A stretch of DNA of 20,895 bases, from the IMG/VR virus record IMGVR_UViG_2703718846_000002; one strand, written 5' to 3'. This document shows, piece after piece, positions 1,587 through 20,895 of the stretch. A program made the translations under genes and the position numbers. This DNA comes from a virus (taxonomy: Duplodnaviria > Heunggongvirae > Uroviricota > Caudoviricetes). Every line of letters begins with the position of its first letter. The stretch's first letter is position 1. The notes under the pieces were generated by a model. The model worked only from the letters and a program-made list of their open reading frames with translations. It was not told where the DNA came from and did not search any database.

Positions 1587-1658
1587 CGATTTCTTTATCT
1601 CTTACATCAGACGAGCGCCGGTTGCAGAATACCAGTCACAACCGGCGACAGTTGAACA

Positions 1659-2387: not shown

Positions 2388-3484
2388 TCCTCAAAGGCCG
2401 TTACGCTGATTTTGGACCTACGTTTGCGTGCGAAAAATTGCGCGAGATACACGGTTTATCTTTATCCGTTGAAACTCTCAGAAAGTGGATGATAGAAGAG
2501 GGGTTATGGCGTGAACGCCGTCGTAAAATTGCCCGTATATATCAACGCCGCATGCGACGACCATCTTACGGTGAACTGATCCAGATTGATGGCTCACCTC
2601 ATGACTGGTTTGAAAATCGAGGCCCCAGATGTACACTGATCGTTTTCATTGATGATGCCACCAGTGCGTTGATGGCGTTGCGTTTTGTGCCTGCTGAAAC
2701 AACCCGGGCTTACATGGAAACCCTCCGGGGTTACCTTAATGATCATGGCGTACCGCTCGCTCTCTACTCTGATAGACACAGTATATTCAGGGTAAATAAC
2801 CCAGAGCGGGAAGGTGAGCTGACCCAGTTCACTCGTGCGATAAAGACACTGGGCATCGAGCCAATCCATGCCAACAGCCCGCAGGCAAAAGGGCGGGTAG
2901 AGCGCGCCAATCAGACACTACAGGACAGGCTGGTCAAAGAAATGCGGCTTCAGAATATCAGTGATATTGAAACAGCAAATGCATGGTTGCCGACCTTTAT
3001 TGAAGCCTATAACAACCGGTTCGCTACGTCGCCTCGTACTACTGATAATGCTCATCTTGATGTGCACCATTCTGAAGAGGAACTGGGTTATATCTTCAGC
3101 CTACAGGCGAAGCGCGTTCTGTCTAAAAATCTCACTTTCCAGTACAAAAGCAGTGCGTTTCAGGTACGCAGTGAGGGCCGGGGATATCGACTTAGGCATT
3201 CGGTTGTTACTGTATGCGAGAACTTTGACGGTGAAATTAACGTTCTGTATGACGGGAAAGCGCTGGGCTGGGAAAAGTATGTTGATGGCCCGGAGCCTAT
3301 ACCACTGGATGATGAAAAGAGTGTCCATGAACGAGTGGATAATGCCCGTATTGATTTACGCTCAAAATACTATGTTAAACCTAAAGCTGACCATCCCTGG
3401 CTTACGCGCCGAACGCAAAGTCATCAGCAAGTTAAGCCCCCGAAGTTACCTAAAAAGAAGCCTGATCCCGATAAAAAAGATTGA
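2258..3484 (+). CDS. DDE-superfamily transposase/integrase-core protein, probably a 5'-truncated IS remnant (IS481/ISNCY-like)
   Basis: DDE triad context IQIDGS ... YSDRHS ... SPQAKGRVERANQTLQDRL (E-x-x-N-x-T-L signature). The N-terminal part of the ORF is an out-of-frame read across the exonuclease upstream region, so the real N-terminus with its HTH seems to be missing. No terminal inverted repeats were identified. Confidence 0.55.
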   Translation: MGDLPSRQFHYRYCDADCRQCSPCVDVQRLPFPPDHLPELQPSLLKGRYADFGPTFACEKLREIHGLSLSVETLRKWMIEEGLWRERRRKIARIYQRRMRRPSYGELIQIDGSPHDWFENRGPRCTLIVFIDDATSALMALRFVPAETTRAYMETLRGYLNDHGVPLALYSDRHSIFRVNNPEREGELTQFTRAIKTLGIEPIHANSPQAKGRVERANQTLQDRLVKEMRLQNISDIETANAWLPTFIEAYNNRFATSPRTTDNAHLDVHHSEEELGYIFSLQAKRVLSKNLTFQYKSSAFQVRSEGRGYRLRHSVVTVCENFDGEINVLYDGKALGWEKYVDGPEPIPLDDEKSVHERVDNARIDLRSKYYVKPKADHPWLTRRTQSHQQVKPPKLPKKKPDPDKKD

Positions 3485-3920
3485 AACCAAGATCGATTCG
3501 GTTGAGTGCATATCCATTCATAGGGTAGATTCTTAAGTCGCGTTTCTGGTGTTCATTTTCGGGTGGTTTGTTACTTGTTTTACCGGGGATATGCCAGAAA
3601 CGCGCTGAGTCAGTCTGGGCGGTGCGCGTAATGAGGCGTTATGGTAAATAGCCTATGCTAATGTCCGCTAAGAGCAAGAAGCGGAAGTTGGCAGTTTTGT
3701 GGACTGTCCCCACAAAAGTGACTACAGAAATAGTTGCAATTCATAATTGATCATGGGTTGTCAGTTAAACTCGTGGCGATTTAAATAGACTAATTGGGAG
3801 TGCGTCCATTACTTATATCTTGTAATGTTAACTATCAGAAATGATACAAAGATAATATGTCTTTAAAGAAAAGGCTGATGGCGAAAAGTGGCCCGATGAG
3901 GGCCACAATACGGCTGTCAC

Positions 3921-4253
3921 TTAGACGTAAATATCAATGGTGCCAGCGGTATTTGTATCGTCTTTTTTCTCTTCTTTTTTATCAGGCTGAACTGTCGCGT
4001 CTTCATTCTTTTTCTCTGCCTGCTGCCTTAACAACTGCTCCAGTTGAGCCCAGAGGCTTTCAATTTGCTTCTGTACCAATGCAGCCATTTCTTTTTTCTG
4101 CTGTGTCGTCATCCCCTCTTCCGATGAGATTTTCCCAAGCTTTTCAGTCAGCACCTGAATTTGTCTTGTGATTTTGGCTATTTCTGATGTTCCTTCCGGG
4201 GCGGAGTTGTTTGAAATAACGGTTGAGGTATTTCCCTGAATTGTGACAGACAT
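3921..4253 (-). CDS. flxA: FlxA (flagellar-regulon protein of the Qin prophage)
   Basis: 110-aa ORF (MSVTIQGNTSTVISNNSAPEGTSEIAKITRQIQVLTEKL...) recognised as FlxA; preceded by a sigma-28-type promoter. Confidence 0.8.
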   Translation of the reverse strand: MSVTIQGNTSTVISNNSAPEGTSEIAKITRQIQVLTEKLGKISSEEGMTTQQKKEMAALVQKQIESLWAQLEQLLRQQAEKKNEDATVQPDKKEEKKDDTNTAGTIDIYV

Positions 4254-4276
4254 AGATTTCTCCTTTTAAAAAAGCA

Positions 4277-4303
4277 CTATCGGCATGCACAAAAAAATCT
4301 TTA
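4277..4303 (-). promoter_or_regulatory. Sigma-28 (FliA) promoter for flxA
   Basis: Minus strand reads TAAAGATT - 11 nt - GCCGATAG against the consensus TAAAGTTT-N11-GCCGATAA, about 24 nt upstream of the flxA ATG, with AAAGGAGAAAT as SD. Confidence 0.6.
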
Positions 4304-4455
4304 ATCGTATTTCTTGTGTCATTAATTGTTTGATGTTCAGATTGTTTTCCTCGCGGGCTGGCGCGCCTCAGAAAGTAAAGCTTGTTGACAGGGGTAAACG
4401 TTCGGCAATAATTTTCTGCCGCATGCGGGTGTTGCATAAAACGTGTTACGTTCCT

Positions 4456-4761
4456 TTATCGACAGGTCAGGTCACCGCTCACCCGCCGACGAGAAAGCAA
4501 CACTGACATGCTAAAGCAAAAAATAGATGAATAAGTTGAGTTGTGCATATGTAGCCTGACCGTCACAAAGTATATGGTGTCTGTACCAGTAAGATGATGG
4601 CCGGACTCTTTAAAAACGAGCTGACCTGCACAATACAGGATGGACTTAGCAATGGCTGCTCCTGGCACAAAGCGGACAGTGATCACCGTTCTTACGACTA
4701 CTTTCTGACTTCCTTCGTGACTTGCCCTAAGCATGTTGTAGTGCGATACTTGTAATGACAT
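4456..4761 (-). CDS. ydfV: Hypothetical protein (ydfV-like by position and length)
   Basis: 101-aa ORF between flxA and relB. Composition is unconvincing and its start codon lies inside the relBE operator region. Confidence 0.3.
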   Translation of the reverse strand: MSLQVSHYNMLRASHEGSQKVVVRTVITVRFVPGAAIAKSILYCAGQLVFKESGHHLTGTDTIYFVTVRLHMHNSTYSSIFCFSMSVLLSRRRVSGDLTCR

Positions 4762-4785
4762 TTGTAATTACAAGAGGTGTAAGAC
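4745..4785 (+). promoter_or_regulatory. relBE promoter/operator (relO-like inverted TTGTAAT/ATTACAA repeats)
   Basis: Sequence CTTGTAATGACATTTGTAATTACAAGAGG lies immediately upstream of relB. Confidence 0.55.
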
Positions 4786-5025
4786 ATGGGTAGCATTAAC
4801 CTGCGTATTGACGATGAACTTAAAGCGCGTTCTTACGCCGCGCTTGAAAAAATGGGTGTAACTCCTTCTGAAGCGCTTCGTCTCATGCTCGAGTATATCG
4901 CTGACAATGAACGCTTGCCGTTCAAACAGACACTCCTGAGTGATGAAGATGCTGAACTTGTGGAGATAGTGAAAGAACGGCTTCGTAATCCTAAGCCAGT
5001 ACGTGTGACGCTGGATGAACTCTGA
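4786..5025 (+). CDS. relB: RelB antitoxin
   Basis: 79-aa ORF MGSINLRIDDELKARSYA...PKPVRVTLDEL, near-identical to recalled K-12 RelB; its stop overlaps the relE start (ATGA). Confidence 0.95.
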   Translation: MGSINLRIDDELKARSYAALEKMGVTPSEALRLMLEYIADNERLPFKQTLLSDEDAELVEIVKERLRNPKPVRVTLDEL

Positions 5026-5312
5026 TGGCGTATTTTCTGGATTTTGACGAGCGGGCACTAAAGGAATGGCGAAAGCTGGGCTCGACGGTACGTGAACAGT
5101 TGAAAAAGAAGCTGGTTGAAGTACTTGAGTCACCCCGGATTGAAGCAAACAAGCTCCGTGGTATGCCTGATTGTTACAAGATTAAGCTCCGGTCTTCAGG
5201 CTATCGCCTTGTATACCAGGTTATAGACGAGAAAGTTGTCGTTTTCGTGATTTCTGTTGGGAAAAGAGAACGCTCGGAAGTATATAGCGAGGCGGTCAAA
5301 CGCATTCTCTGA
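5025..5312 (+). CDS. relE: RelE mRNA-interferase toxin
   Basis: 95-aa ORF MAYFLDFDERALKEWRKLGSTVREQLKKKL... matching recalled RelE; translationally coupled to relB. Confidence 0.95.
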   Translation: MAYFLDFDERALKEWRKLGSTVREQLKKKLVEVLESPRIEANKLRGMPDCYKIKLRSSGYRLVYQVIDEKVVVFVISVGKRERSEVYSEAVKRIL

Positions 5313-5383
5313 ACCAAAGCATGACATCTCTGTTTCGCACCGAAGGTGACACTTCTGCTTTGCGTTGACAGGAGAAGCAGGCT

Positions 5384-5539
5384 ATGAAGCAGCAAAAGGC
5401 GATGTTAATCGCCCTGATCGTCATCTGTTTAACCGTCATAGTGACGGCACTGGTAACGAGGAAAGACCTCTGCGAGGTACGAATCCGAACCGGCCAGACG
5501 GAGGTCGCTGTCTTCACAGCTTACGAACCTGAGGAGTAA
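5384..5539 (+). CDS. hokD: Hok-family type I toxin (HokD/RelF)
   Basis: 51-codon ORF below the ORF-track size cutoff, translated by hand: MKQQKAMLIALIVICLTVIVTALVTRKDLCEVRIRTGQTEVAVFTAYEPEE. Single transmembrane helix. Confidence 0.8.
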   Translation: MKQQKAMLIALIVICLTVIVTALVTRKDLCEVRIRTGQTEVAVFTAYEPEE

Positions 5540-5607
5540 GAGACCCGGCGGGGGAGAAATCCCTCGCCACCTCTGATGTGGCAGGCATCCTCAACGCACC
5601 CGCACTT

Positions 5608-5634
5608 AACCCGCTTCGGCGGGTTTTTGTTTTT
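5608..5634 (+). terminator. Rho-independent terminator after hokD
   Basis: AACCCGC-TTCG-GCGGGTT hairpin followed by TTTTTGTTTTT. Confidence 0.6.
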
Positions 5635-5755
5635 ATTTTCAACGCGTTTGAAGTTCTGGACGGTGCCGGAATAGAATCAAAAATACTTAAGTAGCGCGCA
5701 GGGATAAGAGGGATGGTCCCTTAAAGGGGAGAGCTAATTATCCGGAAGGATTCTG

Positions 5756-6007
5756 ATGATGAACATCGAAGAACTGCGTAAAATTTTTTGTGAAGATGGC
5801 CTCTATGCTGTGTGCGTTGAAAATGGAAATCTTGTTAGTCATTACCGCATTATGTGTTTGCGAAAGAATGGGGCTGCGTTAATTAATTTTGTGGATGCTC
5901 GGGTCACGGACGGATTTATCTTGCGCGAAGGTGAGTTTGTCACTTCATTACAGGCATTGAAAGAGATCGGAATAAAAGCTGGCTTTTCTGCTTTTTCAGG
6001 AGAATAA
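5756..6007 (+). CDS. rem: Rem (Qin prophage small protein)
   Basis: 83-aa ORF MMNIEELRKIFCEDGLYAVCVENG... at the position of rem between hokD and ydfU. Confidence 0.65.
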   Translation: MMNIEELRKIFCEDGLYAVCVENGNLVSHYRIMCLRKNGAALINFVDARVTDGFILREGEFVTSLQALKEIGIKAGFSAFSGE

Positions 6008-6073
6008 ACTCATCTACAATCTTGCGCGGGGCTGAACTCCCGCTGAGTAACACCGTGCCACCGGAGAAAACCG

Positions 6074-6352
6074 ATGGCACGCAACGCAAAATATTACAAT
6101 TCTGATAATTCGCCCGTTCTTGCCTGCACGCACGGGCGGTATTCTCACGCATTCAAGTCTGAATGGTTCCAGCACCCTCCATGCACTGCAGAACAGGCCG
6201 AATGGCTGATTCATTCTTACCGCAGGCGCGGGTTCGAGGTTAAGAAAGCTCTCAGTCTCGACTATCGGCACTGGATAATCTCTGTCAGGCTGCCTTATTC
6301 CGAACGCCCACCACGTGCGTCCCGCACTTTCCAGCAACGGATCTGGAGGTAA
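6074..6352 (+). CDS. Hypothetical protein, translationally coupled to ydfU
   Basis: 92-aa ORF with a GGAGA SD 6 nt upstream. Its TAA stop is followed one base later by the GTG start of ydfU, with GGAGG inside its last codons. Confidence 0.4.
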   Translation: MARNAKYYNSDNSPVLACTHGRYSHAFKSEWFQHPPCTAEQAEWLIHSYRRRGFEVKKALSLDYRHWIISVRLPYSERPPRASRTFQQRIWR

Positions 6353-6353
6353 C

Positions 6354-7403
6354 GTGCGGGTATTACTTAGACCTGTTCTGGTGCCTGAGCTTGGGCTGGT
6401 GGTCCTTAAGCCGGGCCGTGAATCCATACAGATATTTCATAATCCTCGAGTGCTGGTGGAACCGGAACCAAAAAGCATGCGTAATCTGCCATCCGGAGTC
6501 GTTCCTGCCGTTCGCCAGCCGCTGGCGGAAGACAAAACATTGCTGCCGTTTTTTAGTAACGAACGGGTGATTCGTGCTGCTGGCGGCGTTGGCGCATTGT
6601 CCGACTGGCTATTACGTCATGTTACATCCTGCCAGTGGCCTAATGGCGATTACCATCACACTGAAACAGTCATTCACCGTTATGGTACCGGCGCAATGGT
6701 GTTGTGCTGGCACTGCGACAACCAACTGCGTGACCAGACATCGGAATCACTGGAGCTGCTTGCTCAACAAAATCTGACAGCATGGGTGATTGACGTCATC
6801 CGTCACGCAATAAGCGGTACGCAGGAGCGGGAATTATCTTTGGCTGAATTATCCTGGTGGGCGGTCTGCAATCAGGTGGTGGATGCACTACCTGAGGCTG
6901 TATCGCGTCGTTCGCTGGGATTACCAGCGGAAAAAATCTGCTCGGTGTACCGCGAAAGCGACATCGTACCGGGAGAGCAGACCGCCACCAGCATATTGAA
7001 ACAACGCACAAAAAATCTTGCACCGTTGCCTTACGCCCACCAGCAACAAAAATCACCACAGGAAAAGACGGTGGTAAGCATCACCGTTGATCCAGAGTCT
7101 CCGGAATCTTTCATGAAGCTGCCTAAACGTCGCCGCTGGGTTAAGGAGAAATACACACGTTGGGTTAAGACACAGCCGTGTGCTTGCTGCGGTATGCCAG
7201 CCGACGATCCGCATCATCTGATTGGTCACGGGCAGGGCGGAATGGGAACAAAAGCACATGATCTCTTTGTGTTGCCTTTGTGCAGAAAGCATCACAACGA
7301 GCTGCACACGGATACAGTGGCATTTGAAGATAAGTATGGCTCTCAACTGGAGCTGATATTTCGTTTTATCGATCGCGCGCTGGCAATTGGCGTACTGGCG
7401 TAA
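6354..7403 (+). CDS. ydfU: YdfU-like protein with a C-terminal HNH nuclease motif
   Basis: 349 codons from the GTG at 6354 (the ORF track extends to 6315). C-terminus reads CACCGMPADDPHHLIGHGQGGMGTKAHDLFVLPLCRKHHNELH (CxxC ... DxHH ... GG ... CxxH-H-N ... H). Confidence 0.7.
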   Translation: MRVLLRPVLVPELGLVVLKPGRESIQIFHNPRVLVEPEPKSMRNLPSGVVPAVRQPLAEDKTLLPFFSNERVIRAAGGVGALSDWLLRHVTSCQWPNGDYHHTETVIHRYGTGAMVLCWHCDNQLRDQTSESLELLAQQNLTAWVIDVIRHAISGTQERELSLAELSWWAVCNQVVDALPEAVSRRSLGLPAEKICSVYRESDIVPGEQTATSILKQRTKNLAPLPYAHQQQKSPQEKTVVSITVDPESPESFMKLPKRRRWVKEKYTRWVKTQPCACCGMPADDPHHLIGHGQGGMGTKAHDLFVLPLCRKHHNELHTDTVAFEDKYGSQLELIFRFIDRALAIGVLA

Positions 7404-7416
7404 GTGGAGAACGAGC

Positions 7417-8169
7417 ATGAACCTTGAAGCCTTACCAAAATATTACTCCCCAAAATCTCCAAAATTGAGCGATGACGCTCCAGCGACAGGCACCGGTTGT
7501 TTAACAATTACGGATGTAATGGCAGCGCAGGGGATGGTGCAGTCGAAAGCACCACTTGGGTTGGCCTTATTTCTGGCAAAAGTTGGTGTTCAGGACCCTC
7601 AGTTTGCGATTGAAGGCCTGCTAAATTACGCGATGGCACTGGATAACCCGACATTGAACAAATTGAGTGAAGAAATCCGGTTACAGATTATTCCTTACCT
7701 CGTGAGTTTTGCCTTTGCTGATTACTCCAGGTCTGCGGCAAGTAAGGCTCGCTGTGAGCATTGTTCAGGTACGGGATTTTATAATGTATTGCGCGAAGTG
7801 GTGAAACACTACAGACGCGGGGAATCTGTAATCAAGGAAGAATGGGTGAAGGAACTATGTCAGCATTGCCATGGTAAGGGCGAAGCCAGCACAGCGTGCA
7901 GAGGGTGTAAGGGTAAAGGGATTGTTCTGGATGAAAAAAGAACCCGGTTTCATGGCGTACCGGTATATAAGATTTGTGGGCGTTGTAATGGAAACCGGTT
8001 TAGTCGTTTACCGACCACGCTGGCACGACGTCATGTCCAGAAGCTGGTACCAGACCTGACCGATTATCAGTGGTATAAGGGGTATGCGGACGTCATTGGT
8101 AAACTGGTAACAAAGTGCTGGCAGGAAGAAGCATACGCGGAAGCGCAATTGAGGAAGGTGACGAGATAA
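7417..8169 (+). CDS. quuQ: Late-gene antiterminator Q (phage 82/21-type)
   Basis: 250 codons from the ATG at 7417, with a GGAGA SD. Several CxxC motifs (CEHCSGTG, CQHCHGKG, CRGCKGKG, CGRCNGN). Sits immediately before a promoter and hairpin like lambda pR'/tR'. Confidence 0.8.
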   Translation: MNLEALPKYYSPKSPKLSDDAPATGTGCLTITDVMAAQGMVQSKAPLGLALFLAKVGVQDPQFAIEGLLNYAMALDNPTLNKLSEEIRLQIIPYLVSFAFADYSRSAASKARCEHCSGTGFYNVLREVVKHYRRGESVIKEEWVKELCQHCHGKGEASTACRGCKGKGIVLDEKRTRFHGVPVYKICGRCNGNRFSRLPTTLARRHVQKLVPDLTDYQWYKGYADVIGKLVTKCWQEEAYAEAQLRKVTR

Positions 8170-8200
8170 ATGATTTTTGCTGAAGATGGCGACATGATGT

Positions 8201-8229
8201 TTGCATTTTTCAAAAAATATGGATAAAAT
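8201..8229 (+). promoter_or_regulatory. Sigma-70 promoter downstream of Q (pR'-like late promoter)
   Basis: TTGCAT - 17 nt - TAAAAT, about 30 nt after the quuQ stop. Confidence 0.5.
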
Positions 8230-8274
8230 TTTTTCAACGATGGGCTTTGTATACCCGACGTTAAGAAAAAGTAG

Positions 8275-8298
8275 AAAACCCGCTGATGAGCGGGTTTT
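8275..8298 (+). terminator. Intrinsic terminator (tR'-like)
   Basis: AAAACCCGC-TGATGA-GCGGGTTTT hairpin with a T-run, about 45 nt downstream of the pR'-like -10. Confidence 0.6.
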
Positions 8299-8590
8299 GT
8301 GCTTTAAATGGGGCAATGGTAATGTTGAATCTCATCCCGGGACTCATGTCTGTTAACTTATTATTTAGCTGGTGACTTGGTTATTTGCCTGATGTTTAAA
8401 ATGTTTTCTTCCAGTACAATGTCCCTAAACACAATGAGTCTGCTTATTATATTATTAGCAGAGCTATTACGGCCAAAGTACAGCATAAGCTTTTAAAGCC
8501 AATCAACCAGTCATCAAGACAGACGGGGTTATTCATAAAAACTCTCCATGTGTGATCCGATGGGGCCTGAAATTAAAGCTTTAATATAGC

Positions 8591-8803
8591 TCATGAAAGG
8601 TAAACATTGGCAGCTGAAGGGCCACGCAGACCATTTATCCGGCAAAATTCCACGCGTAATCCGGTGGTAATTTCTTCTGCATCGCGGAGATTGAGCGCTG
8701 AAACATGAAGCTGGACATCGATACGACCATCGGATGGGGTGATAAGACCCTTGCCGCTTTTGCCGTCAAAGGTTTTGACAATTCCTGTCATTTTACGGGA
8801 CAA
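8591..8803 (-). CDS. cspF: CspA-family cold-shock-like protein (CspF/CspH type)
   Basis: 70-aa [30 protein letters not shown]...[13 protein letters not shown], divergent from cspB as in Qin. The cspF versus cspH call rests on position only. Confidence 0.8.
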
Positions 8804-9103
8804 AAAAATTCCTTAATACTGATAACTTGGCGCACTATACACACGTTCCTGAAGAAAGCTATAGTTTTTTGATGGGGTTGAAGATGGCTGGATGTCTAAA
8901 ATAAACATTGCTTCATATGTTCAACTATGCGTTAATGATTGCGTCGGTTTGAAGAACAGACGATATACGAAGTAGTTTACTAAAGCAGTTCTCATTTCAG
9001 GTGTTATTCACTTATTCCTTCTTTGAGTCTCTCCAATTAAGTACGAAGTCGTTTCTGTTATGCAAACCATTTATGCCGAAAGGCTCAAGTTAAGGAATGT
9101 AGA

Positions 9104-9319
9104 ATGTCAAATAAAATGACTGGTTTAGTAAAATGGTTTAACGCTGATAAAGGTTTCGGCTTTATTTCTCCTGTTGATGGTAGTAAAGATGTGTTTGTGC
9201 ATTTTTCTGCGATTCAGAATGATAATTATCGAACCTTATTTGAAGGTCAAAAGGTTACCTTCTCTATAGAGAGTGGTGCTAAAGGTCCTGCAGCAGCAAA
9301 TGTCATCATTACTGATTAA
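9104..9319 (+). CDS. cspB: Cold-shock protein CspB
   Basis: 71-aa [70 protein letters not shown].... The 5' UTR carries a GCCGAAAGGC hairpin before the SD, as in cspA. Confidence 0.9.
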
Positions 9320-9600
9320 AATTCATCGCTCGTCTGTATACGATAACGAAGAAGGCTGATGCCTGAGTAGAGATACGGACAGAGTAGTGAATATTGGATC
9401 TCTTTAATAAAAAGTAAGGAGGTCCAATACATGAAACAATGGCTAGCATATTTGGCAAAATCTTAATCAGGAAAAGTATGCTAACCATTGTGGTGAAGTG
9501 CAGGTTTGCTGCATGAATAGTTTTACAGCAGAAGCTAACTGCTGGCATGGCAAAACAAAGTGCGTAAGTGGATGACTCCCACAAAAAGCACCACAATCTC

Positions 9601-9623
9601 AAACCCGCTCAGGCGGGTTTTTT
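9601..9623 (+). terminator. Intrinsic terminator with the same stem as the tR'-like hairpin
   Basis: AAACCCGC-TCAG-GCGGGTTT followed by TTTT. Confidence 0.55.
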
Positions 9624-9682
9624 ATTATCTGCTTTAAATATATTATTAAAATATAAAAAATACTTGTTACTAATAAAATCAA

Positions 9683-9853
9683 TCAGGCTACAGCTTTAAG
9701 ATTTGTCTGGAATACTTTGTTGCAATGAGGGCAGATCAAAAGGGCACCTTTTTGTACTCTTGAAAAACTGTGTTCTGACTCTTGGGTGCAGTTTGGGCAG
9801 GAACATTTAACGAGATAATTACGGCGTGATTTTGAGTTTTTACGTTCTGACAT
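9683..9853 (-). CDS. Small zinc-ribbon protein, Com-like (CxxC ... SF ... CxxC)
   Basis: 56 codons from an internal Met with an AGGAAA SD: MSERKNSKSRRNYLVKCSCPNCTQESEHSFSRVQKGALLICPHCNKVFQTNLKAVA. The ORF track extends it to 9904. Confidence 0.45.
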   Translation of the reverse strand: MSERKNSKSRRNYLVKCSCPNCTQESEHSFSRVQKGALLICPHCNKVFQTNLKAVA

Positions 9854-10072
9854 AGGCTTTTCCTGTATAAATGGCCGTATACAGTACACTAAATATGAAA
9901 ACATTTCTCGTATTATTATTTTATATATGACTTTCTTTCAAAATAATTACCCACATTTTTAATGTGTATGTTTTTTTAGCGCCGTTGAGAACAACGTGTG
10001 CTGTCAAAACTACCCCGTAGACTCCGATCTTTTCAAACATATTGCACCATCCGTGTACATCGGGGTGAGGAT

Positions 10073-10288
10073 ATGAAATCAATGGATAAGTTAACAACAG
10101 GTGTTGCCTATGGCACATCGGCGGGTAATGCTGGTTTCTGGGCATTGCAGTTACTCGATAAAGTAACTCCGTCACAGTGGGCTGCAATCGGTGTGCTGGG
10201 TAGCCTGGTTTTTGGCCTGCTGACGTATCTGACAAATCTTTATTTCAAGATTAAAGAAGACAGGCGTAAGGCTGCGAGAGGAGAGTAA
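10073..10288 (+). CDS. essQ: Class II holin/pinholin (phage 21 S-type) with a dual-start motif
   Basis: 71 codons from MKSMDK... with a GGTGAGG SD. Met1-Lys-Ser-Met4 dual start and a hydrophobic core ([18 protein letters not shown]); the ORF track extends it upstream to 9998. Confidence 0.85.
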
Positions 10289-10292
10289 TCCA

Positions 10293-10600
10293 ATGACTCA
10301 AGACTATGAACTGGTTGTGAAAGGAGTCCGTAATTTTGAGAATAAAGTTACGGTAACTGTAGCCTTACAGGACAAAGAACGCTTTGACGGTGAAATTTTT
10401 GACCTGGATGTCGCCATGGACCGTGTTGAAGGAGCTGCGCTGGAGTTTTATGAGGCAGCAGCCAGAAGGAGCGTCCGGCAAGTCTTCCTGGAAGTAGCAG
10501 AAAAATTGTCAGAAAAAGTTGAGTCTTATCTGCAGCATCAGTACTCCTTTAAGATTGAAAATCCTGCCAATAAGCACGAGCGTCCTCATCATAAATATCT

Positions 10601-10604
<4 letters not shown>
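10293..10604 (+). CDS. ydfR: Hypothetical protein inside the lysis cassette (YdfR-like)
   Basis: 103-aa ORF with a strong GAGAGGAGAG SD inside the end of the holin gene; its stop overlaps the endolysin start (ATGA). Confidence 0.7.
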
Positions 10605-11628
<1,024 letters not shown>

Positions 11629-11990
11629 GGTAATATTAAATCGGAACATTTACATCGCGGAATGTAAAATTTAAATAAAAAGGACTCTTCCATGAGCCAA
11701 AATTCCTGAAATCTTAAGGGTAAGATAAAAGGTCTTAATCAGAATGACACGTTTTATTAATAAATAAAGCTATTCTTTCATTGCTGTGTTTTTCTTTACA
11801 AAAGTAATCCTTGCTATGGGTGGTTAATCATGCGTTAATGGTGTTCTGGTTTGTTACAAATTTATCTGAAGCAGTCATTGTTATAATTTTATTATTTGTA
11901 CCTCTTGAGATTTCCTTGTTGGTTTTTCTCTCTGATATTTTTTTTCGGACCATTCTGCCCAAGGGCTAATTTCTTCAAAAGGTAATAATT

Positions 11991-12203
11991 ATGTCTAACA
12001 AAATGACTGGTTTAGTGAAATGGTTTAACCCTGAAAAAGGTTTTGGTTTCATCACGCCGAAAGATGGCAGCAAAGATGTGTTTGTCCATTTCTCAGCAAT
12101 TCAGAGCAACGATTTCAAAACATTAACTGAGAATCAGGAAGTTGAATTTGGTATTGAGAACGGACCTAAAGGTCCTGCCGCTGTTCATGTAGTGGCGCTT
12201 TGA
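11991..12203 (+). CDS. cspI: Cold-shock protein CspI
   Basis: 70-aa [73 protein letters not shown]. Confidence 0.9.
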
Positions 12204-12407
12204 GGTAGACAATATTACAAACCATATTCACTTTAGATGCCCGTGTTGTCATGGTTCCCAGTATAGAACATCATCTTTTGATGTTTCTGACATGAATCCT
12301 TTCGGGGCAAAATGTATCTTTTGTAAATCAATGATGATTACATTTGATAATATTTCACAATACTTAAATGCCAGCCGTCTGTCGTTGGATTTAAAAAAGT
12401 GAAAATG

Positions 12408-12430
12408 AAGGCTCCTTCGGGAGCTTTTTT
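12408..12430 (+). terminator. Intrinsic terminator about 200 nt downstream of cspI
   Basis: AAGGCTCC-TTCG-GGAGCTT hairpin followed by TTTTTT. Confidence 0.5.
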
Positions 12431-12474
12431 GCTTGGTGTCTATTCGATGGATACTCACATACTACGGTAACATC

Positions 12475-12705
12475 ATGAAAAAAATCATAGTTTTTTTTAA
12501 CTCTGAACCAGCAGTGGTAGTGCCAGCGATGACTGGAGTTAACACCATCATGCGTGAATATCCAAATGGCGAAAAAACACACCTTACTGTAATGGCCGCA
12601 GGGTTTCCATCTCTGACCGGAGATCATAAAGTCATTTATGTAGCCGCGGATCGACATGTTACTTCAGAAGAAATTCTGGAAGCAGCAATAAGGCTCTTGA
12701 GTTGA
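12475..12705 (+). CDS. Hypothetical small protein
   Basis: 76 codons from the internal Met MKKIIVFFNSEPAVVV...; balanced composition but a weak RBS. A competing minus-strand ORF (12391..12657) looks less protein-like. Confidence 0.3.
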   Translation: MKKIIVFFNSEPAVVVPAMTGVNTIMREYPNGEKTHLTVMAAGFPSLTGDHKVIYVAADRHVTSEEILEAAIRLLS

Positions 12706-12876
12706 TTTGATGCTATTGCATTGATAATTCAGGAAAATTCTCTTTGTCTGTTTGTGTAAAATTTAGACTATCGTATGTTGATTATTGCGATGTTTCATCT
12801 TATCTTTTACACGTTTGCACCATATAATCGACTTACTGTGTAACTGGAAAGTCATAACAGACTAAAAGAGGAAATG

Positions 12877-13050
12877 ATGAATATTGAAAACTTAAAAACA
12901 AAAGCAGAAGCAGATATTTCTGAATATATAACAAAAAAAATTATTGAACTTAAGAAAAAGACCGGGAAAGAAGTTACCAGTATTCAGTTTACCGCACGGG
13001 AAAAAATGACGGGTCTTGAAAGCTATGATGTCAAGATTAATTTAATCTGA
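12877..13050 (+). CDS. gnsB: GnsB (suppressor of secG-null cold sensitivity)
   Basis: 57-codon ORF below the ORF-track cutoff, translated by hand: MNIENLKTKAEADISEYITKKIIELKKKTGKEVTSIQFTAREKMTGLESYDVKINLI. Confidence 0.8.
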   Translation: MNIENLKTKAEADISEYITKKIIELKKKTGKEVTSIQFTAREKMTGLESYDVKINLI

Positions 13051-13201
13051 TGTATTCAATAATAAAATTTATCCATAAACCTCGTTTTTACGGGGTTTTG
13101 TTATATTTGAATGGTTCCGAATATCTAAATCACAATTGTTGATGGTTTTTATTAAACCAATGCAGTCCGGCTCAGGAGTGAGAGAAGCCGGACGTTATGG
13201 T

Positions 13202-13612
13202 TTAGCGTGGTAAGATCTGTGTAGTTTTCTGGATGCTTTCAGTAAATAGTAATGAATTATCAAAGGTATAGTAATATCTTTTTTGTTCGTGGATATTTGT
13301 AACCCACCGAAAAACTCCTGCTTTAGCAAGGTTTCTTCTGTATTCCTGAAATGTGATCTCTCTGGATTTCAGCTTATTAGAGGTCGTTTCTATAAGATGC
13401 CTATCCTTTGAAAATTTGACAGACACAATGTTTTTTAGGCCCTTTAATAACACTGTATTATCATTTTTTAATACAATATGAACATTCTCTGTGGCTAAAT
13501 AGTAAATGTAATGTGAGACATTGTGACGTTTTAGCTCAGAATAAAACCATTGATAGTTTAAATCGTTTCGAACTTTATCAAATATTTGTTTAAAAATGAC
13601 TACCTGATCCAT
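13202..13612 (-). CDS. ydfO: YdfO-like protein of unknown function
   Basis: 136 codons from [11 protein letters not shown]... with a GGAAGG SD 8 nt upstream; the ORF track extends it to 13627. Confidence 0.7.
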
Positions 13613-13669
13613 AGATAAACCTTCCATGTGATATGAGGGGGCGTAGTCTGCACGATTATCTAAATTGCT

Positions 13670-13903
13670 TCAATCTGGTCTGACCTGTTTTCTGAGCAAT
13701 TCAGTAATGTCACTCTTTTCTTTGTTTGCTTCAGAAGAAACTCTTTTTTCTGAGCACAGTCTCCGGCGGCAGGCTTCAATGACCCAGGCTGAGAAATTCC
13801 CGGACCCTTTTTGCTCAAGAGCGATGTTAATTTGTTCAATCATTTGGTTAGGAAAGCGGATGTTGCGGGTTGTTGTTCTGCGGGTTCTGTTCTTCGTTGA
13901 CAT
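13670..13903 (-). CDS. ynfO: Ribbon-helix-helix (Arc/MetJ/CopG-type) DNA-binding protein
   Basis: 77-aa ORF with the RHH pattern RNIRFPNQMIEQINIALEQKGSGNFSAWVIEACRRRL (strand, helix, G-x-S loop, helix); 57 nt upstream of ydfO on the same strand. Confidence 0.6.
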   Translation of the reverse strand: MSTKNRTRRTTTRNIRFPNQMIEQINIALEQKGSGNFSAWVIEACRRRLCSEKRVSSEANKEKSDITELLRKQVRPD

Positions 13904-13974
13904 GAGGTTGCCCTGTATTCAGTGTCGCTGATTTGTATTGTCTGAAGTTGTTTTTACGTTAAGTTGATGCAGAT

Positions 13975-14290
13975 CAATTAATACGATACCTGCGTCATAA
14001 TTGATTATTTGACGTGGTTTGATGGCCTCCACGCACGTTGTGATATGTAGATGATAATCATTATCACTTTACGGGTCCTTTCCGGTGATCCGACAGGTTA
14101 CGGGGCGGCGACCTCGCGGGTTTTCGCTATTTATGAAAATTTTCCGGTTTAAGGTGTTTCCGTTCTTCTTCGTCGTAACTTAATGTTTTTATTTAAAATA
14201 CCCCCTGAAAAGAAAGGAAACGACAGGTGCTGAAAGCGGGCTTTTTGGCCTTTGTCGTTTCCTTTCTCTGTTTTTGTCCGTGGAATGAAC
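13975..14290 (+). other. Lambda-type cos site (cosQ-cosN-cosB) with the 12-nt cohesive-end sequence GGGCGGCGACCT at about 14103..14114
   Basis: Reads ...GATCCGACAGGTTACG GGGCGGCGACCT CGCGGGTTTTCGCTATTTATGAAAATTTTCCGG..., near-identical to the lambda cos junction as recalled, immediately upstream of the Nu1 start. Confidence 0.85.
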
Positions 14291-14291
14291 A

Positions 14292-14837
14292 ATGGAAGTC
14301 AACAAAAAGCAGCTGGCTGACATTTTCGGTGCGAGTATCCGTACCTTTCAGAACTGGCAGGAACAGGGAATGCCCGTTCTGCGAGGCGGTGGCAAGGGTA
14401 ATGAGGTGCTTTATGATTCTGCCGCCGTCATAAAATGGTATGCCGAAAGGGATGCTGAAATTGAGAACGAAAAGCTGCGCCGGGAGGTTGAAGAACTGCT
14501 GCAGGCCAGCGAGACAGATCTCCAGCCAGGGACTATTGAGTACGAACGCCATCGACTTACGCGTGCGCAGGCCGACGCACAGGAGCTGAAAAATGCCAGA
14601 GACTCCGCTGAAGTGGTGGAAACCGCATTCTGTACTTTCGTGCTGTCGCGGATCGCAGGTGAAATTGCCAGTATTCTCGACGGGATCCCCCTGTCGGTGC
14701 AGCGGCGTTTTCCGGAACTGGAAAACTGACATGTTGATTTCCTGAAACGGGATATCATCAAAGCCATGAACAAAGCAGCCGCGCTGGATGAACTGATACC
14801 GGGGTTGCTGAGTGAATATATCGAACAGTCAGGTTAA
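14292..14837 (+). pseudogene. nohA: Terminase small subunit Nu1 homolog interrupted by an in-frame TGA at 14727..14729
   Basis: 145-aa ORF MEVNKKQLADIFGASIRTFQNWQEQGMPVLRGGGKGNEVLYD... matches lambda Nu1. After the TGA the same frame continues [35 protein letters not shown] to a TAA, restoring a 181-codon Nu1. Confidence 0.8.
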
Positions 14838-17013
14838 CAGGCTGCGGCATTTTGTCCGCGCCGGGCTTCGCTCACTGTTCAGGCCGGAGCCACAGACCGC
14901 CGTTGAATGGGCGGATGCCAATTACTATCTCCCGAAAGAATCCGCATACCAGGAAGGGCGCTGGGAAACACTGCCCTTTCAGCGGGCCATCATGAATGCG
15001 ATGGGCAGCGACTACATCCGCGAGGTGAATGTGGTGAAGTCTGCCCGTGTTGGTTATTCCAAAATGCTGTTGGGTGTTTATGCCTACTTCATAGAGCATA
15101 AGCAGCGCAACACACTTATCTGGTTGCCGACGGATGGTGATGCCGAGAACTTTATGAAAACCCACGTTGAGCCGACCATCCGTGATATTCCTTCGCTGCT
15201 GGCGCTGGCCCCGTGGTATGGCAAAAAGCACCGGGATAACACGCTCACCATGAAGCGTTTCACCAATGGGCGTGGCTTCTGGTGCCTGGGCGGTAAAGCG
15301 GCAAAAAACTACCGTGAAAAGTCAGTGGATGTGGCGGGTTATGATGAACTTGCTGCCTTTGATGAGGATATTGAACAGGAAGGCTCTCCGACGTTCCTGG
15401 GCGATAAGCGTATTGAAGGCTCTGTCTGGCCAAAATCCATCCGTGGCTCCACGCCCAAAGTGAGAGGCACCTGCCAGATTGAGCGTGCAGCCAGTGAATC
15501 CCCGCATTTTATGCGTTTTCATGTTGCCTGCCCGCACTGCGGGAAGGAGCAGTACCTTAAATTTGGCGACAAAGAGACGCCGTTTGGCCTCAAATGGATG
15601 CCGGATGATCCCTCCAGCGTGTTTTATCTCTGTGAGCATAATGCCTGCGTCATCCGTCAGCAGGACGGAACGTTTAAGCCAGCATACAGCAACAACATGG
15701 CCTGGTGTCTGTGGGATATGCTGACCCACCCGCGCTACGGCATGGGTAAACGTCTTGGTGCGGCAGATGTGGATAAATGGGCGCTGTATGTCATCGGCCA
15801 GTGTTGCGACCAGTCGGTGCCGGACGGTTTTGGCGGCACGGAGCCGCGCATCACCTGTAATGCCTGGCTGACCACACAGCGTAAGGCGTGGGATGTTCTC
15901 AGTGATTTCTGCTCGGCGATGCGCTGTATGCCGGTATGGAACGGGCAGACGCTGACGTTCGTGCAGGACCGACCATCAGATAAGGTGTGGACCTATAACC
16001 GCAGTAATGTGGTGATGCCGGATGATGGCGCGCCGTTCCGCTACAGCTTCAGCGCCCTGAAGGACCGCCATAATGCCGTTGAGGTGAACTGGATTGACCC
16101 GGATAACGGCTGGGAGACGGCGACAGAGCTTGTGGAGGACACGCAGGCCATTGCCCGTTACGGTCGTAACGTCACGAAGATGGATGCCTTTGGCTGTACC
16201 AGGCGGGGGCAGGCGCACCGAGCCGGGCTGTGGCTGATTAAAACGGAACTGCTGGAAACGCAGACCGTGGACTTCAGCGTGGGTGCCGAAGGGCTTCGCC
16301 ATGTACCAGGTGATGTCATTGAAATCTGTGATGATGACTATGCGGGGATCAGCATCGGCGGGCGCGTGCTGGCGGTGAACAGCCAGACGCGGACACTGAC
16401 GCTCGACCGTGAAATCACGCTGCCATCCTCCGGCACCACGCTGATAAGCCTGGTTGACGGGCAGGGTAATCCGGTGAGCGTGGAGGTCCAGTCCGTCACC
16501 GACGGCGTGAAGGTGAAAGTGAGCCGGGTTCCTGACGGCGTTGCCGAGTACAGCGTGTGGGGGCTGAAGCTGCCGACGCTGCGTCAGCGCCTGTTCCGCT
16601 GTGTGAGTATCCGTGAGAACGATGACGGTACGTATGCCATCACTGCCGTGCAGCATGTACCGGAGAAAGAAGCCATCGTGGATACCCATAGTGTTAGCGG
16701 TACGGCTGCTTCAGCCGGTGCACATACCCATTCGATGACATTTGTTTCAGGTGGTTCCAGTGGTGCTCCGGGAAGTGGATCACCTGATTATTCTAAATAC
16801 AGTGTTAACACTTCTTCTGCAGGCGCTCATACGCACTCTGTATCGGGTACTGCTGCAAGCGCAGGTGCACACGCACATACTGTCGGTATTGGTGCTCATA
16901 CGCACTCCGTTGCGATTGGTTCACATGGACATACCATCACCGTTAACGCTGCTGGTAACGCGGAAAACACCGTCAAAAACATCGCATTTAACTATATTGT
17001 GAGGCTTGCGTAA
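14812..17013 (+). pseudogene. stfQ: In-frame chimera: terminase large subunit A N-terminus, internal segment of tail-tip protein J, side-tail-fibre C-terminus
   Basis: Residues 1 to about 284 ([19 protein letters not shown] ... CVIRQQ) match lambda gpA. The next segment ([28 protein letters not shown] ... [10 protein letters not shown]) matches internal lambda J. The last ~110 aa (GAHTHS repeats ... [11 protein letters not shown]) match the side-tail-fibre C-terminus. Junctions lie near 15663 and 16683. Confidence 0.8.
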
Positions 17014-17588
17014 TGGCATTCAGAATGAGTGAACAACCACGGACCATAAAAATTTATAATCTGCTGGCCGGAACTAATGAATTTATTGGTGAAGGTGACG
17101 CATATATTCCGCCTCATACAGGTCTGCCAGCAAACAGTACCGATATTGCACCGCCAGATATTCCGGCAGGCTTCGTGGCTGTTTTCAACAGTGATGAGGC
17201 ATCGTGGCATCTCGTTGAAGATCATCGGGGTAAAACGGTTTATGACGTGGCTTCCGGCGACGCGTTATTTATTTCTGAACTCGGTCCGTTACCGGAAAAT
17301 GTTACCTGGTTATCGCCGGGAGGGGAATATCAGAAGTGGAACGGCACAGCCTGGGTGAAGGATACGGAAGCAGAAAAACTGTTCCGGATCCGGGAGGCGG
17401 AAGAAACAAAAAACAGCCTGATGCAGATAGCCAGTGAGCATATAGCGCCGCTTCAGGATGCTGTGGATCTGGAGATCGCAACGGAGGAAGAAACCTTGTT
17501 GCTGGAAGCCTGGAAAAAGTATCGGGTGTTGCTGAACCGTGTTGATACATCAACTGCACCGGATATTGAATGGCCAGCACTGCCGTAG
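17013..17588 (+). CDS. tfaQ: Tail fibre assembly protein
   Basis: 191-aa [42 protein letters not shown]...; its start overlaps the stop of the fibre remnant (TAATG). Confidence 0.85.
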
Positions 17589-17685
17589 GGTAAAACATAT
17601 AAATTCTATAATTAGATGTATCTCTCCATTTACGGCAAGGAAGGGGGCTTGGAAGACGTAAAGCATCTCACACCGAGATTATTTT

Positions 17686-18276
17686 TTATATGTCAGGTGT
17701 CTGAAGTTTTGCTTTGGCTCTTAAAATGGTTTGCCGCGAGGTTTTGAATTCCCGGGCAATGGCACTTATACTTACACCTGACTTAATTCGTTCGAATACC
17801 ACCTGTTTCTGTTCTTCATTTAACACAGGTGGTCGACCAAAACGTTTCCCTGCGCCGCGGGCTCTTACTATCCCGGAATGAGTGCGTTCAAGTAAAAGGT
17901 CTCGTTCAAATTCAGCGACTGCTGAAATTACGTGCATCATCATTTTTCCTGTTGGACTGGTCAGGTCAATGCCCCCCAATGCTAAGCAATGCACTCTGAT
18001 ACCTGTTTCGGTCAGTTGTTCCACTGTTTTCCTGATATCCATTGCATTACAACCAAGGCGATCCAGTTTTGTCACAATCAATTGATCACCACATTTCAGG
18101 CGAGCAAGCAACCGGTTAAAACCAGGACGCTCACTGGTTGCTGCTGAGCCGCTAATGTGTTCTTCGATTATTTGCTGAGGTTTGATTTTAAAACCTGCAC
18201 TTTCGATTTCCCGGCGTTGATTTTCGGTGGTCTGATCCAGCGTTGATATCCGACAGTAAGCAAAAATTCGAGACAT
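17686..18276 (-). CDS. pinQ: Serine recombinase/DNA invertase Pin (Gin/Hin/Cin family)
   Basis: 196-aa [23 protein letters not shown]... with the catalytic Ser in the N-terminal RIS motif and a C-terminal HTH. Confidence 0.9.
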
Positions 18277-18592
18277 AGTGAGACTCTATACGAAATTGGT
18301 GTTCATATCATAATGCATCTCAGAAAATAATTTTGATTATTTTTGTGCATATTTGTATGTACACGTTCGAAAATAAACGAATGCGTATGCAACCCCGTAA
18401 CTTTGGTGAGACCCAAAATCGATTTTGTGAAAAATGGCTTTAACTCGGTTTGTTTTTCGAGTTCCGGGCGGACTCAAGGAAGAAGAATAGTGTTGCGTGT
18501 TATTTTAACCAGATTTCAAGTTGTTTGGTCGTGGAAAAGTGGAGCAAAATGTTGTTAAAGTGGAAAAATGATAAAAAAGTAAGTTTATTATA

Positions 18593-18826
18593 TTACATTT
18601 TACCATTTAAATTTTGGTTGTCTTTAAGAACTGATATCGCTGTTTGTAATAATTCTTTGTTATCCAGCCATGATTTTTTCTTTATGTTTCCTTCAATGTA
18701 ATCAAGCAATGTTCTGGTATTGATAGGTCTTCCCTGTTTTGCTACTTCCACTACAGCATCCCCTAGGATAATTCTGACTTCAGGAAGCTGCGCAGGGAAC
18801 CACTTTAGGGTGTCTTTTGATTTCAT
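18593..18826 (-). CDS. ydfK: YdfK/YnaE-family small protein (cold-shock-induced family)
   Basis: 77 codons from MKSKDTLKWFPAQLPEVRIILGDAVVEVAKQGRPINTRTLL...; the ORF track extends it to 18859. Confidence 0.75.
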   Translation of the reverse strand: MKSKDTLKWFPAQLPEVRIILGDAVVEVAKQGRPINTRTLLDYIEGNIKKKSWLDNKELLQTAISVLKDNQNLNGKM

Positions 18827-19611
18827 GAATATATTCCTTAAAATATTATTGATTTTCATTGCGATATTGTATGTCTGATTCAGGATATGTTGACTTATAC
18901 ATCGGTTTTGTCTGGGTTATTGGATATGCCAATCCCTAATTTTATTAGAGCATGACTAAAAATGCTGAATATGATAAGGAGCGAAGTGATTATCAGTATG
19001 CTGTTCATATAGCCTCGAATTAGTAATGTGTTATATATGATATAGTTGACAATTTTTATCCTGGGTGTTCTTAAAGTTCGTAGATAAACATTGTCGTTTC
19101 AGGTATACAGGAATGCTAACAGATGGCGGCAAAAATCAGGCGGTTTATGGCGCAAGCTGAAGTGGCAACTGCAAACTATCTTATGCAGAGACTCTACACG
19201 GATTGGGTTTAAAAGTATACATAGATAACAGTTTTTATCTGAAGAAGAAAAATATCAAGGTGATATAGCCTATATGCCTTTGATGTGGAGGAATGAATGT
19301 GATGGGAGTGATGTATCTGAATAGTTGAAAAACCGCAGACACGCCTTATGCAAGAACGTGCTGCGGTTGGCTGGTAAATTTTTCGATAGTGCGAGTATTG
19401 AATGATTTCCAGCCGTTATTGATTTTACGCGTAACTCCATGAAAAAACTACTTATCTGTTGAGGAGTTTTTTTGGGGCATATATGGGACAGAAATGGGCC
19501 CCAGATAGACACTGAGATCGAACTTAGGATGCTTTTTAAAAAATGCAACTATCTGAAAAAACCTAGAAAACGCCAAGGAAACCACAGGATGGGAAAAAAC
19601 ACCTGTGAATT

Positions 19612-20895
19612 ATGGATTTCCAGTTATATTCGCTCGGCGCAGCGTTAGTGTTTCATGAAATATTTTTTCCTGAATCATCAACGGCAATGGCGTTAATTCT
19701 GGCAATGGGAACCTACGGTGCAGGTTATGTGGCGCGTATTGTCGGAGCATTTATTTTCGGCAAAATGGGCGACAGAATAGGGCGTAAAAAAGTGCTCTTT
19801 ATTACCATCACCATGATGGGGATCTGTACCACCTTAATTGGTGTGTTACCGACCTATGCACAGATTGGTGTTTTTGCACCCATCTTGCTGGTGACGTTGC
19901 GTATTATTCAGGGGTTGGGTGCAGGTGCGGAAATTTCCGGTGCCGGTACGATGCTGGCGGAATATGCGCCAAAAGGTAAGCGCGGAATTATCTCCTCATT
20001 TGTGGCTATGGGAACTAACTGCGGAACCTTGAGCGCAACGGCAATCTGGGCCTTTATGTTCTTCATTCTCAGTAAAGAGGAACTGCTGGCGTGGGGATGG
20101 CGTATACCGTTCCTGGCGAGTGTTGTCGTGATGGTCTTTGCTATCTGGTTGCGTATGAATCTGAAAGAAAGCCCGGTCTTTGAGAAGGTTAACGACAGTA
20201 ACCAACCGACAGCAAAACCTGCACCTGCTGGTAGCATGTTCCAGAGCAAATCCTTCTGGCTGGCAACAGGGCTGCGTTTTGGTCAGGCGGGTAACTCCGG
20301 GTTAATTCAGACTTTCCTTGCAGGCTATTTAGTGCAGACGTTATTGTTTAACAAAGCAATTCCAACAGATGCATTGATGATCAGTTCGATTCTCGGCTTT
20401 ATGACCATTCCGTTCCTTGGTTGGTTATCCGATAAAATTGGTCGCCGGATCCCGTATATTATTATGAATACCTCCGCGATTGTGCTGGCATGGCCAATGC
20501 TTTCTATCATTGTAGATAAAAGCTATGCCCCGAGCACCATTATGGTTGCACTGATTGTGATTCATAACTGTGCGGTGCTGGGATTATTTGCTCTGGAAAA
20601 CATTACCATGGCAGAAATGTTCGGCTGTAAAAACCGCTTTACCCGGATGGCTATTTCTAAAGAAATTGGTGGTCTTATCGCTTCCGGTTTTGGTCCTATC
20701 CTGGCGGGTATTTTCTGCACCATGACGGAATCCTGGTATCCGATCGCCATTATGATCATGGCATATTCAGTGATTGGTTTAATCTCTGCGCTGAAAATGC
20801 CAGAGGTGAAAGACCGTGATTTAAGTGCGCTGGAAGACGCTGCGGAAGATCAACCGCGTGTTGTAAGAGCTGCGCAACCTTCCAGAAGTCTGTAA
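19612..20895 (+). pseudogene. ydfJ: MFS metabolite:H+ symporter (ydfJ-like), N-terminally truncated at the prophage junction
   Basis: 427-aa ORF beginning MDFQLYSLGAALVFHEIFFP, which corresponds to the conserved (W)FDFY region about 30-35 residues into intact family members such as KgtP. An in-frame TGA lies two codons upstream of the first Met. The window ends at the stop codon. Confidence 0.65.

Follow-up and report, generated by a model that had tools for sequence, protein, structure and literature searches.

A sequence-intact lambda-type cos site in a Qin-type prophage relic of Escherichia coli

The window, by which we mean the whole 20.9-kb stretch of DNA analysed here (20,895 nucleotides), is a defective lambdoid prophage of the Qin type from E. 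coli and lies between rspB and a 5′-truncated ydfJ. Its gene map was drawn from block alignment to K-12 and to the annotated Qin prophage of P13-6, the closest complete genome. The relic is bounded by int (20-1315) on the left and by an attR near 19620 on the right, where it adjoins the truncated ydfJ. From the left, int, xis, a truncated exonuclease gene and a fragment of an ISNCY transposase are followed by ydfW, flxA, ydfV, relBE, hokD, rem, ydfU and Q, and then by cspF, cspB, the lysis genes, cspI, gnsB, ydfO and ynfO. The right part consists, in order, of cos, the small terminase gene Nu1 (nohA), remnants of A, J and stf (A′, J′ and stf′), tfaQ, pinQ and ydfK, after which comes host ydfJ′. 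Both the insertion at the 5′ end of ydfJ and the order of genes from relBE through ynfO, cos and nohA to tfaQ, pinQ and ydfK are those of Qin-type lambdoid prophages. The predicted integrase (431 aa) and excisionase are full-length by domain, and they are equal in length to their counterparts in the phage genome PhiR42_1. The gene map shows no head genes in the window, and the tail-related remnants are limited to the J and stf fragments and tfaQ. The csp, toxin and lysis genes, hereafter the cargo, span 4786-13050 and are found entirely to the left of cos.

PhiR42_1 (PV340562) is a deposited genome of 48.7 kb that appears to be an intact Qin-type phage. Its left genes are int, xis, exoVIII, cI, cro (DicC-like), cII and O; it then carries the entire flxA-relBE-hokD-Q-csp-lysis-cspI-gnsB-ydfO-ynfO block, and its right part comprises cos, Nu1, A through J, lom, stf, tfa, pinQ and ydfK. 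The whole window is collinear with this genome and aligns to it in four blocks; int, xis and the csp, relBE, hokD and lysis cargo are common to both. The three deletions between the blocks have removed ~28 kb of immunity, replication, head and tail genes, leaving a relic of ~19.6 kb, or ~41% of the intact genome. In PhiR42_1 coordinates the deletions comprise 3428-11779 (the immunity and replication region), 25061-39781 (running from the 3′ portion of A into the 5′ portion of J) and 40802-46153 (the 3′ portion of J, lom and the 5′ portion of stf). The two sequences are 99.9% identical over 3300-14000, cargo included, so that cargo familiar from cryptic prophages (relBE, hokD, cspB/F/I and gnsB) is also present in an apparently complete phage genome. 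The mismatches are unevenly distributed, with 7 in 2383-13913 and 52 in 13914-15665, and the cos-Nu1-A segment differs by ~3%. At a deletion junction at 2383, the exonuclease VIII-type gene, reduced to its 3′ part, runs directly into the ISNCY-family transposase fragment, and a 408-aa ORF with a TTG start (2258-3484) crosses this junction; its only match is a weak one to rve_3.

The Qin prophage of K-12 and the Qin relics of other strains share the ydfJ site, the order of the cargo and the ynfO-cos-nohA arrangement. Compared with K-12 Qin, the window keeps ~850 bp of A and an intact int and xis, lacks the dicA-dicB region, and has a Nu1 that carries R146*, I19F and R70L. The cosQ and cosN of K-12 Qin are identical to those of the window, whereas its cosB differs at 7 positions.

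The cos site was compared with lambda using the J02459 and DE3 records, a window coordinate being the lambda coordinate plus 14102, or plus 14101 past a 1-bp indel near lambda bp 137. Every cos subsite is contained in the stretch 13975-14290, which ends just short of the Nu1 ATG at 14292 (Table 1). The 12-nt cohesive end, GGGCGGCGACCT, matches the window exactly at one place; chance would give 0.03 matches even if one mismatch were tolerated, and a search with the same 12 nt found no second cos elsewhere in the window. In its conserved CG flanks and its symmetry, cosN is as in lambda. Indeed, window 13915-14154 is identical to lambda and DE3 throughout (lambda 48315-48502 plus bp 1-52). This interval includes cosQ, which we take to correspond to lambda 48473-48479, and the spacing from cosQ to cosN is also that of lambda. 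The 7-bp cosQ has been described as showing no natural variation (PMC4669245), and cosN is defined as the 12 bp together with the 2 bp that flank them at either end (PMC9026076). Within the I2 spacer, replacement of lambda bp 30-35 is lethal (PMC4856287).

Table 1. Positions of the prophage relic, the cos subsites and the terminase remnants in the window.
Feature	Position	Strand	Lambda bp	Remarks
Whole Qin-type relic	1..19620	.		~19.6 kb, single cos; from block alignment to P13-6 Qin and PhiR42_1
cosQ, GGGTCCT, packaging-termination element	14073..14079	+		Identical to lambda; invariant in 6/6 aligned phage/prophage sequences
cosN, nicking site	14101..14116	+		Cohesive end 14103-14114; identical to lambda
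I2 spacer	14120..14152	+	18-50	Identical to lambda; critical bp 30-35 are 14132-14137
R3, critical TerS binding site	14152..14167	+	50-65	Single change, C>T at bp 53 (14155)
I1, IHF-site-like core between R3 and R2	14181..14193	-	79-91	One mismatch to WATCAANNNNTTR
R2, AGAAAGGAAACGACAG	14211..14226	-		Inverted relative to R3 and R1; identical to lambda
R1, TTGTCGTTTCCTTTCT	14252..14267	+		Identical to lambda except for C>T at bp 151, the outermost (first) base
Nu1/nohA (small terminase) pseudogene	14292..14837	+		R146* at 14727-14729, plus I19F and R70L
A′, truncated large terminase gene	14812..15665	+		ATPase domain only; nuclease and portal-binding parts deleted
J′ and stf′ fragments, fused in frame to A′	15663..17013	+		One 733-aa ORF, 14812-17013

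To the right of cosN, the cosB of the window is one base shorter than that of lambda J02459, at about bp 137, and carries four substitutions: C>T at bp 53, A>G at bp 73, T>C at bp 102 and C>T at bp 151. The order R3-I1-R2-R1 is preserved. The extent of R3, its TerS contacts at bp 55-63 and the defective mutations at bp 56, 58 and 59 have been mapped in lambda (PMC9026076, PMC4669245). In the window, bp 55-63 are unchanged and match lambda rather than phage 21 or N15, which points to lambda specificity. An IHF site is expected between R3 and R2 in lambda cosB (PMC9026076); the I1 core found there is the same as in lambda, and the neighbouring differences at bp 73 and 102 fall outside it. R2 and R1 form a perfect 15-nt inverted repeat, and the role of R1 in lambda packaging is accessory only. 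The 239 bp at 14042-14280, equivalent to a lambda cosmid insert, are 97.9% identical to lambda, in which 48442-178 is a working cosmid insert (PMC4856287). Thus the site has the subsites of lambda cos in the same order, orientation and spacing, directly upstream of Nu1, with cosQ, cosN, I2 and R2 identical; it differs from lambda cos in the cosB changes listed above, in being chromosomal and in lying beside a dead terminase operon. J02459 has one extra base (GCGAGGC, bp 134-140) between R2 and R1 relative to DE3, 2H10, PhiR70_1, K-12 Qin and the window (14236-14241), so lambda coordinates to the right of ~bp 137 are shifted by one in these relatives.

Phages 2H10 and PhiR70_1 each carry all five cosB differences from lambda, and their cosB departs from that of the window only at lambda bp 134, between R2 and R1. 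In both phages Nu1 residues 1-74, the whole DNA-binding domain, are identical to lambda Nu1. Because these phages join the cosB alleles to a lambda-identical Nu1 DNA-binding domain, a lambda-type TerS would be expected to work with the cosB of the window. Here 2H10, PhiR70_1 and PhiR42_1 are assumed to be viable from their database records alone, and our literature search found no paper on the PhiR phages. Every mapped subsite is therefore either identical to lambda or carries an allele of deposited phages whose TerS has the lambda-identical DNA-binding domain, and in its sequence the site is a lambda-type complex cos with the features of lambda specificity. The initial annotation had called it an intact lambda-type cos, a description borne out by the identity of cosQ, the cohesive end and I2; alignment of cosN and the R sites, where a cleavage-abolishing change would have counted against that description, showed no substitution known to be damaging. 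No deposited phage has exactly this 239-bp cos (best match 97.9%; 99.5% over cosN and cosB alone), because the site is a mosaic, lambda-type on its left and 2H10/PhiR70-type on its right.

The terminase genes downstream are defective, as the initial annotation had recognized from the nonsense codon in Nu1 and the truncation of the large subunit. R146* arises from a CGA>TGA change, and I19F sits in the Nu1 recognition helix. TerS proteins that lack the C-terminal 30-40 residues bind TerL poorly. A 61-mer carrying the nonsense allele has an exact match in 2 of the ~4000 E. coli records that have this segment of Nu1. The R146* codon is also present in Nu1 of a near full-length lambdoid prophage of E. 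coli RMDEC332 (15596-16141 of its sequence segment), without I19F or R70L; in that prophage the major capsid gene is split by IS621. We considered the nonsense allele as a lineage marker and rejected it, since the only listed exact match (one of the two records) is this different prophage. The CGA>TGA change was either recurrent or moved by recombination. Four of the five differences from P13-6 Qin in 13000-15057 fall in Nu1 (I19F, R70L, R146* and one synonymous change), a clustering that suggests decay after inactivation or a small conversion patch.

In A′, the Pfam GpA_ATPase domain covers residues 47-285 only, the alignment to gene A of PhiR42_1 stops at 15665, and the reading frame continues into J at a junction near 15663. 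The resulting predicted 733-aa ORF crosses two deletion junctions in frame, joining the gpA ATPase domain, a J tail-tip fragment and the stf C-terminus, and ends exactly at the start of tfaQ. This in-frame fusion may have arisen by chance (~1 in 9). The A′-J′ junction was absent from the complete E. coli genomes searched, in which the best coverage of 13900-17700 was 92% at 96.6% identity or 77% at 99.8%, and a 41-mer spanning it had no match in the species-representative genome collection.

The relationships of the sequence change across cosN. The 188 bp to its left show no differences from lambda (0/188) and 9-10/188 from 2H10 and PhiR70_1. To its right the comparison is reversed, and cosB, Nu1 and A′ all resemble PhiR70_1: there are 1/140 differences from PhiR70_1 in cosB and 0/463 in A′, as against 5/140 and 10/463 from lambda. 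A mosaic junction at this position (13915-14155) is in keeping with cos being a known hot spot of recombination. The same 188 bp are also ~5% different from PhiR42_1. Special conservation of cos was considered and rejected, as the adjoining dead A′ is equally or better conserved when compared with its nearest relatives (0/463 versus PhiR70_1). Likewise, cos shows 0 differences from P13-6 Qin in 376 bp, which is not significant given 4 in the 546-bp Nu1.

Sites of this type are widespread. Of 5426 complete E. coli genomes, 3968 (73%) have a lambda-type cos, with a median of two lambda-type cos places per genome having any match, and some strains carry an exact 239-bp copy of the window cos in Qin relics with different deletion endpoints. 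A lambda-type cos beside a nohA/Nu1 remnant is a standard and already known feature of the cryptic prophages Qin and DLP12. A Qin cos site was not discussed in any paper that our literature search found, and the text of PMC6379469 does not mention cos. We consider it likely that the feature is the vestigial, sequence-intact cos of a Qin-type prophage, there by descent and not kept for a purpose. In four Qin relics the independent left deletion endpoints all spare cos and most of Nu1: the endpoint lies at about Nu1 codon 176 in K-12, at the Nu1 end in RM10410, at A+246 bp in P13-6 and at A+850 bp in the window. This sparing could hint at retention, or the deletions may merely be nibbling.

What the site could still do depends on the geometry of packaging. 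In lambda, terminase bound at cosB nicks cosN and then remains with the end that carries cosB, and this end is the first into the prohead. Packaging moves from that end towards Nu1 and requires a second cosQ-cosN downstream to terminate, with ~38-52 kb between the two cos sites. Because movement runs from cosB towards Nu1, packaging from the window cos would proceed rightward, away from the cargo. The path leads through Nu1, A′, tfaQ, pinQ and ydfK, and then into ydfJ and host DNA. With its single cos, the element of ~19.6 kb amounts to ~40% of the lambda chromosome, that is, of a headful, and no concatemers are expected because the immunity and replication modules have been deleted. In P13-6, neither the 49 kb that follow cos nor the 36 kb that precede the left end of the element contain a cosN-like site; these flanks are host DNA (ydfJ, dcp, marRAB and lsr downstream) and nearly cover the 38-52 kb headful window on both sides. 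Whole-element transduction should be rare and would need excision followed by formation of a dimer (two copies, ~39 kb). Such a dimer, formed after int/xis excision, appears to be the only geometry that would fit a headful.

Precedents exist for the use of a cos by an enzyme encoded elsewhere, and the notion that the enzyme of a relative could cut or package a prophage with a defective terminase has already been published. Helper phages use integrated cos sites in situ if a second cos lies one genome length on, and they package chromosomal cos-to-cos ‘passive prophages’ (PMC4669245). In E. coli O157 Sakai, the prophage Sp4 is packaged although its nu1 is disrupted, the enzyme responsible being most likely that of Sp14, which has an identical or nearly identical cos (PMC2669165). 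Sp4 and cos-type PICIs such as EcCICFT073 resemble the relic in being without a working terminase of their own, and are packaged via a lambda-like cos by the enzyme of another phage. It had been proposed in the initial annotation that a co-resident lambda-like phage could cut and package the relic in trans and thereby mobilise its csp, toxin and lysis genes. By analogy with Sp4 and the passive prophages, cutting of this cos in trans by a helper phage of lambda specificity, or packaging by another terminase, is plausible, and a related phage is probably still able to cut it. The mobilisation of the cargo does not follow: the cargo lies on the wrong side of rightward packaging, and the element has one cos, a length of ~19.6 kb, no replication module and, in P13-6, no partner cos.

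In effect, this proposal would make the relic a helper-dependent satellite, packaged via cos by a co-resident lambda-like phage that then transduces the csp, toxin and lysis genes. The intact cos, the precedents of Sp4 and the cos-bearing PICIs, the ~39-kb dimer that would fit a lambda head and the four relics with different deletion endpoints that all keep cos-Nu1 speak for such an arrangement, as do int and xis, which by their sequence would supply the integration and excision genes of a satellite. We nonetheless consider it unlikely. Besides the position of the cargo upstream of cos with respect to packaging, the single cos in 19.6 kb and the empty flanks of P13-6, the relic has no replication module, repressor or derepression logic that a helper could trigger, the region equivalent to PhiR42_1 3428-11779 being deleted. 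Nor does it show a means of redirecting packaging (Rpp, capsid-size redirection or a TerS of its own), no Rpp-like gene having been seen among the selected ORFs scanned; its phage-type cosB is followed by a nonsense Nu1, and its cos is not placed so as to bring the relic itself into the head. In contrast, PICIs replicate after induction, are without a phage-type cosB and encode an Rpp that redirects TerS. Sp4, unlike the relic, has been described as retaining a lambda-type morphogenesis layout and is amplified by the replication of a neighbouring prophage (PMC2669165). Furthermore, Qin-locus prophages range from 11 to 97 kb, and their size is not apparently tuned. The related idea that Qin-type relics are becoming cos-dependent hitchhikers, with the ~19.6-kb relic packaged as a ~39-kb dimer by intact Qin- or lambda-type phages, takes its motivation from the independent deletions that repeatedly spare cos-Nu1 and from the intact int and xis. 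It is weakened by the same range of sizes, and we regard it as very unlikely. If true, the csp/relBE/hok module would spread as a satellite and not only by recombination, and interference of the truncated Nu1 with the helper terminase would be a further twist.

Conversely, the site could be functionally dead or very weak through the changes at R3 bp 53 and R1 bp 151, the R2-R1 spacing that is shorter by 1 bp, or its chromosomal context. Base 53 is the C of the CGTTTCC core common to all three lambda R sites, R3 is critical and its spacing to cosN is sensitive (PMC9026076), and the exact combination of alleles occurs in no deposited phage. However, R3 bp 55-63 and the cosN-R3 spacing are unchanged, and none of the cosB substitutions falls at a position reported to matter. 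T53, T151 and the 1-bp deletion co-occur in 2H10 and PhiR70_1 with a lambda-identical TerS DNA-binding domain, the shorter R2-R1 spacing is also found in DE3, a lambda derivative, and integrated cos sites are used by helper phages (PMC4669245). A dead site therefore seems quite unlikely. We regard as most improbable the possibility that the cos-Nu1 stub is kept as an anti-phage decoy, in which cos soaks up terminase or Nu1(1-145) poisons the terminase of an incoming phage. R146* does remove the C-terminal TerL-binding region and leave the N-terminal domains for DNA binding and oligomerisation, the Rpp of PICIs shows that TerS-binding partners can block phage packaging, and cos-Nu1 is present in several relics. 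Against this, the nonsense allele is rare (2/~4000 records), R146* is accompanied by I19F and R70L in a pattern of decay, and most Qin relics have a full-length nohA.

We return to the likely reading of a vestigial cos, present by descent, and to what such a site would do when terminase is supplied. A terminase of lambda specificity from an infecting or co-resident phage, together with IHF, would bind cosB and nick the chromosomal cosN. One outcome would be a double-strand break; its free left end would promote recombination with a homologous phage, which by crossing over could pick up the Q-csp-lysis side, as has been demonstrated for DLP12. Another would be rightward packaging from one end only, first of the right arm and then of host DNA from ydfJ onward; with no downstream cos, packaging would not terminate and would yield defective particles, as one-cos packaging does. 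The cosQ-cosN of the window could itself serve as a terminator, but only with another cos 38-52 kb upstream. A recombination-stimulating terminase break and one-ended packaging of host DNA are more likely consequences than packaging of the cargo.

The cos-nohD region of DLP12 is the closest guide to the recombination route. There too cos lies inside a homology block common to lambda, and the region has been shown by experiment to be a recombination hot spot. Recombination to the left of cos is stimulated when cos is cut, the cos-nu1 of DLP12 has been rescued into lambda, and cos-proximal genes of DLP12 enter lambda ~100-fold more often than the Qin tfaQ and Rac stfR markers, which lie away from cos. 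The relic differs in being another prophage at another locus, and the nu1 homologue of DLP12 is functional. Homology for exchange is 99.9% to PhiR42_1-type phages on the left of the window cos and 97-100% to lambda/PhiR70-type phages on the right. Because the cargo block is 99.9% identical in PhiR42_1, exchange by homologous recombination is the more credible route for the cargo. Given the polarity of packaging and its size limits, the site is more likely a place of terminase-made breakage and a recombination hot spot than a handle for packaging the relic. Such a break would help related phages to exchange the adjacent Q-csp-lysis module. In P13-6, one headful taken rightward from the Qin cos would include ydfJ, dcp, marRAB, ydeA and the lsr operon, with the multiple-antibiotic-resistance regulator locus ~17-19 kb downstream of cos.
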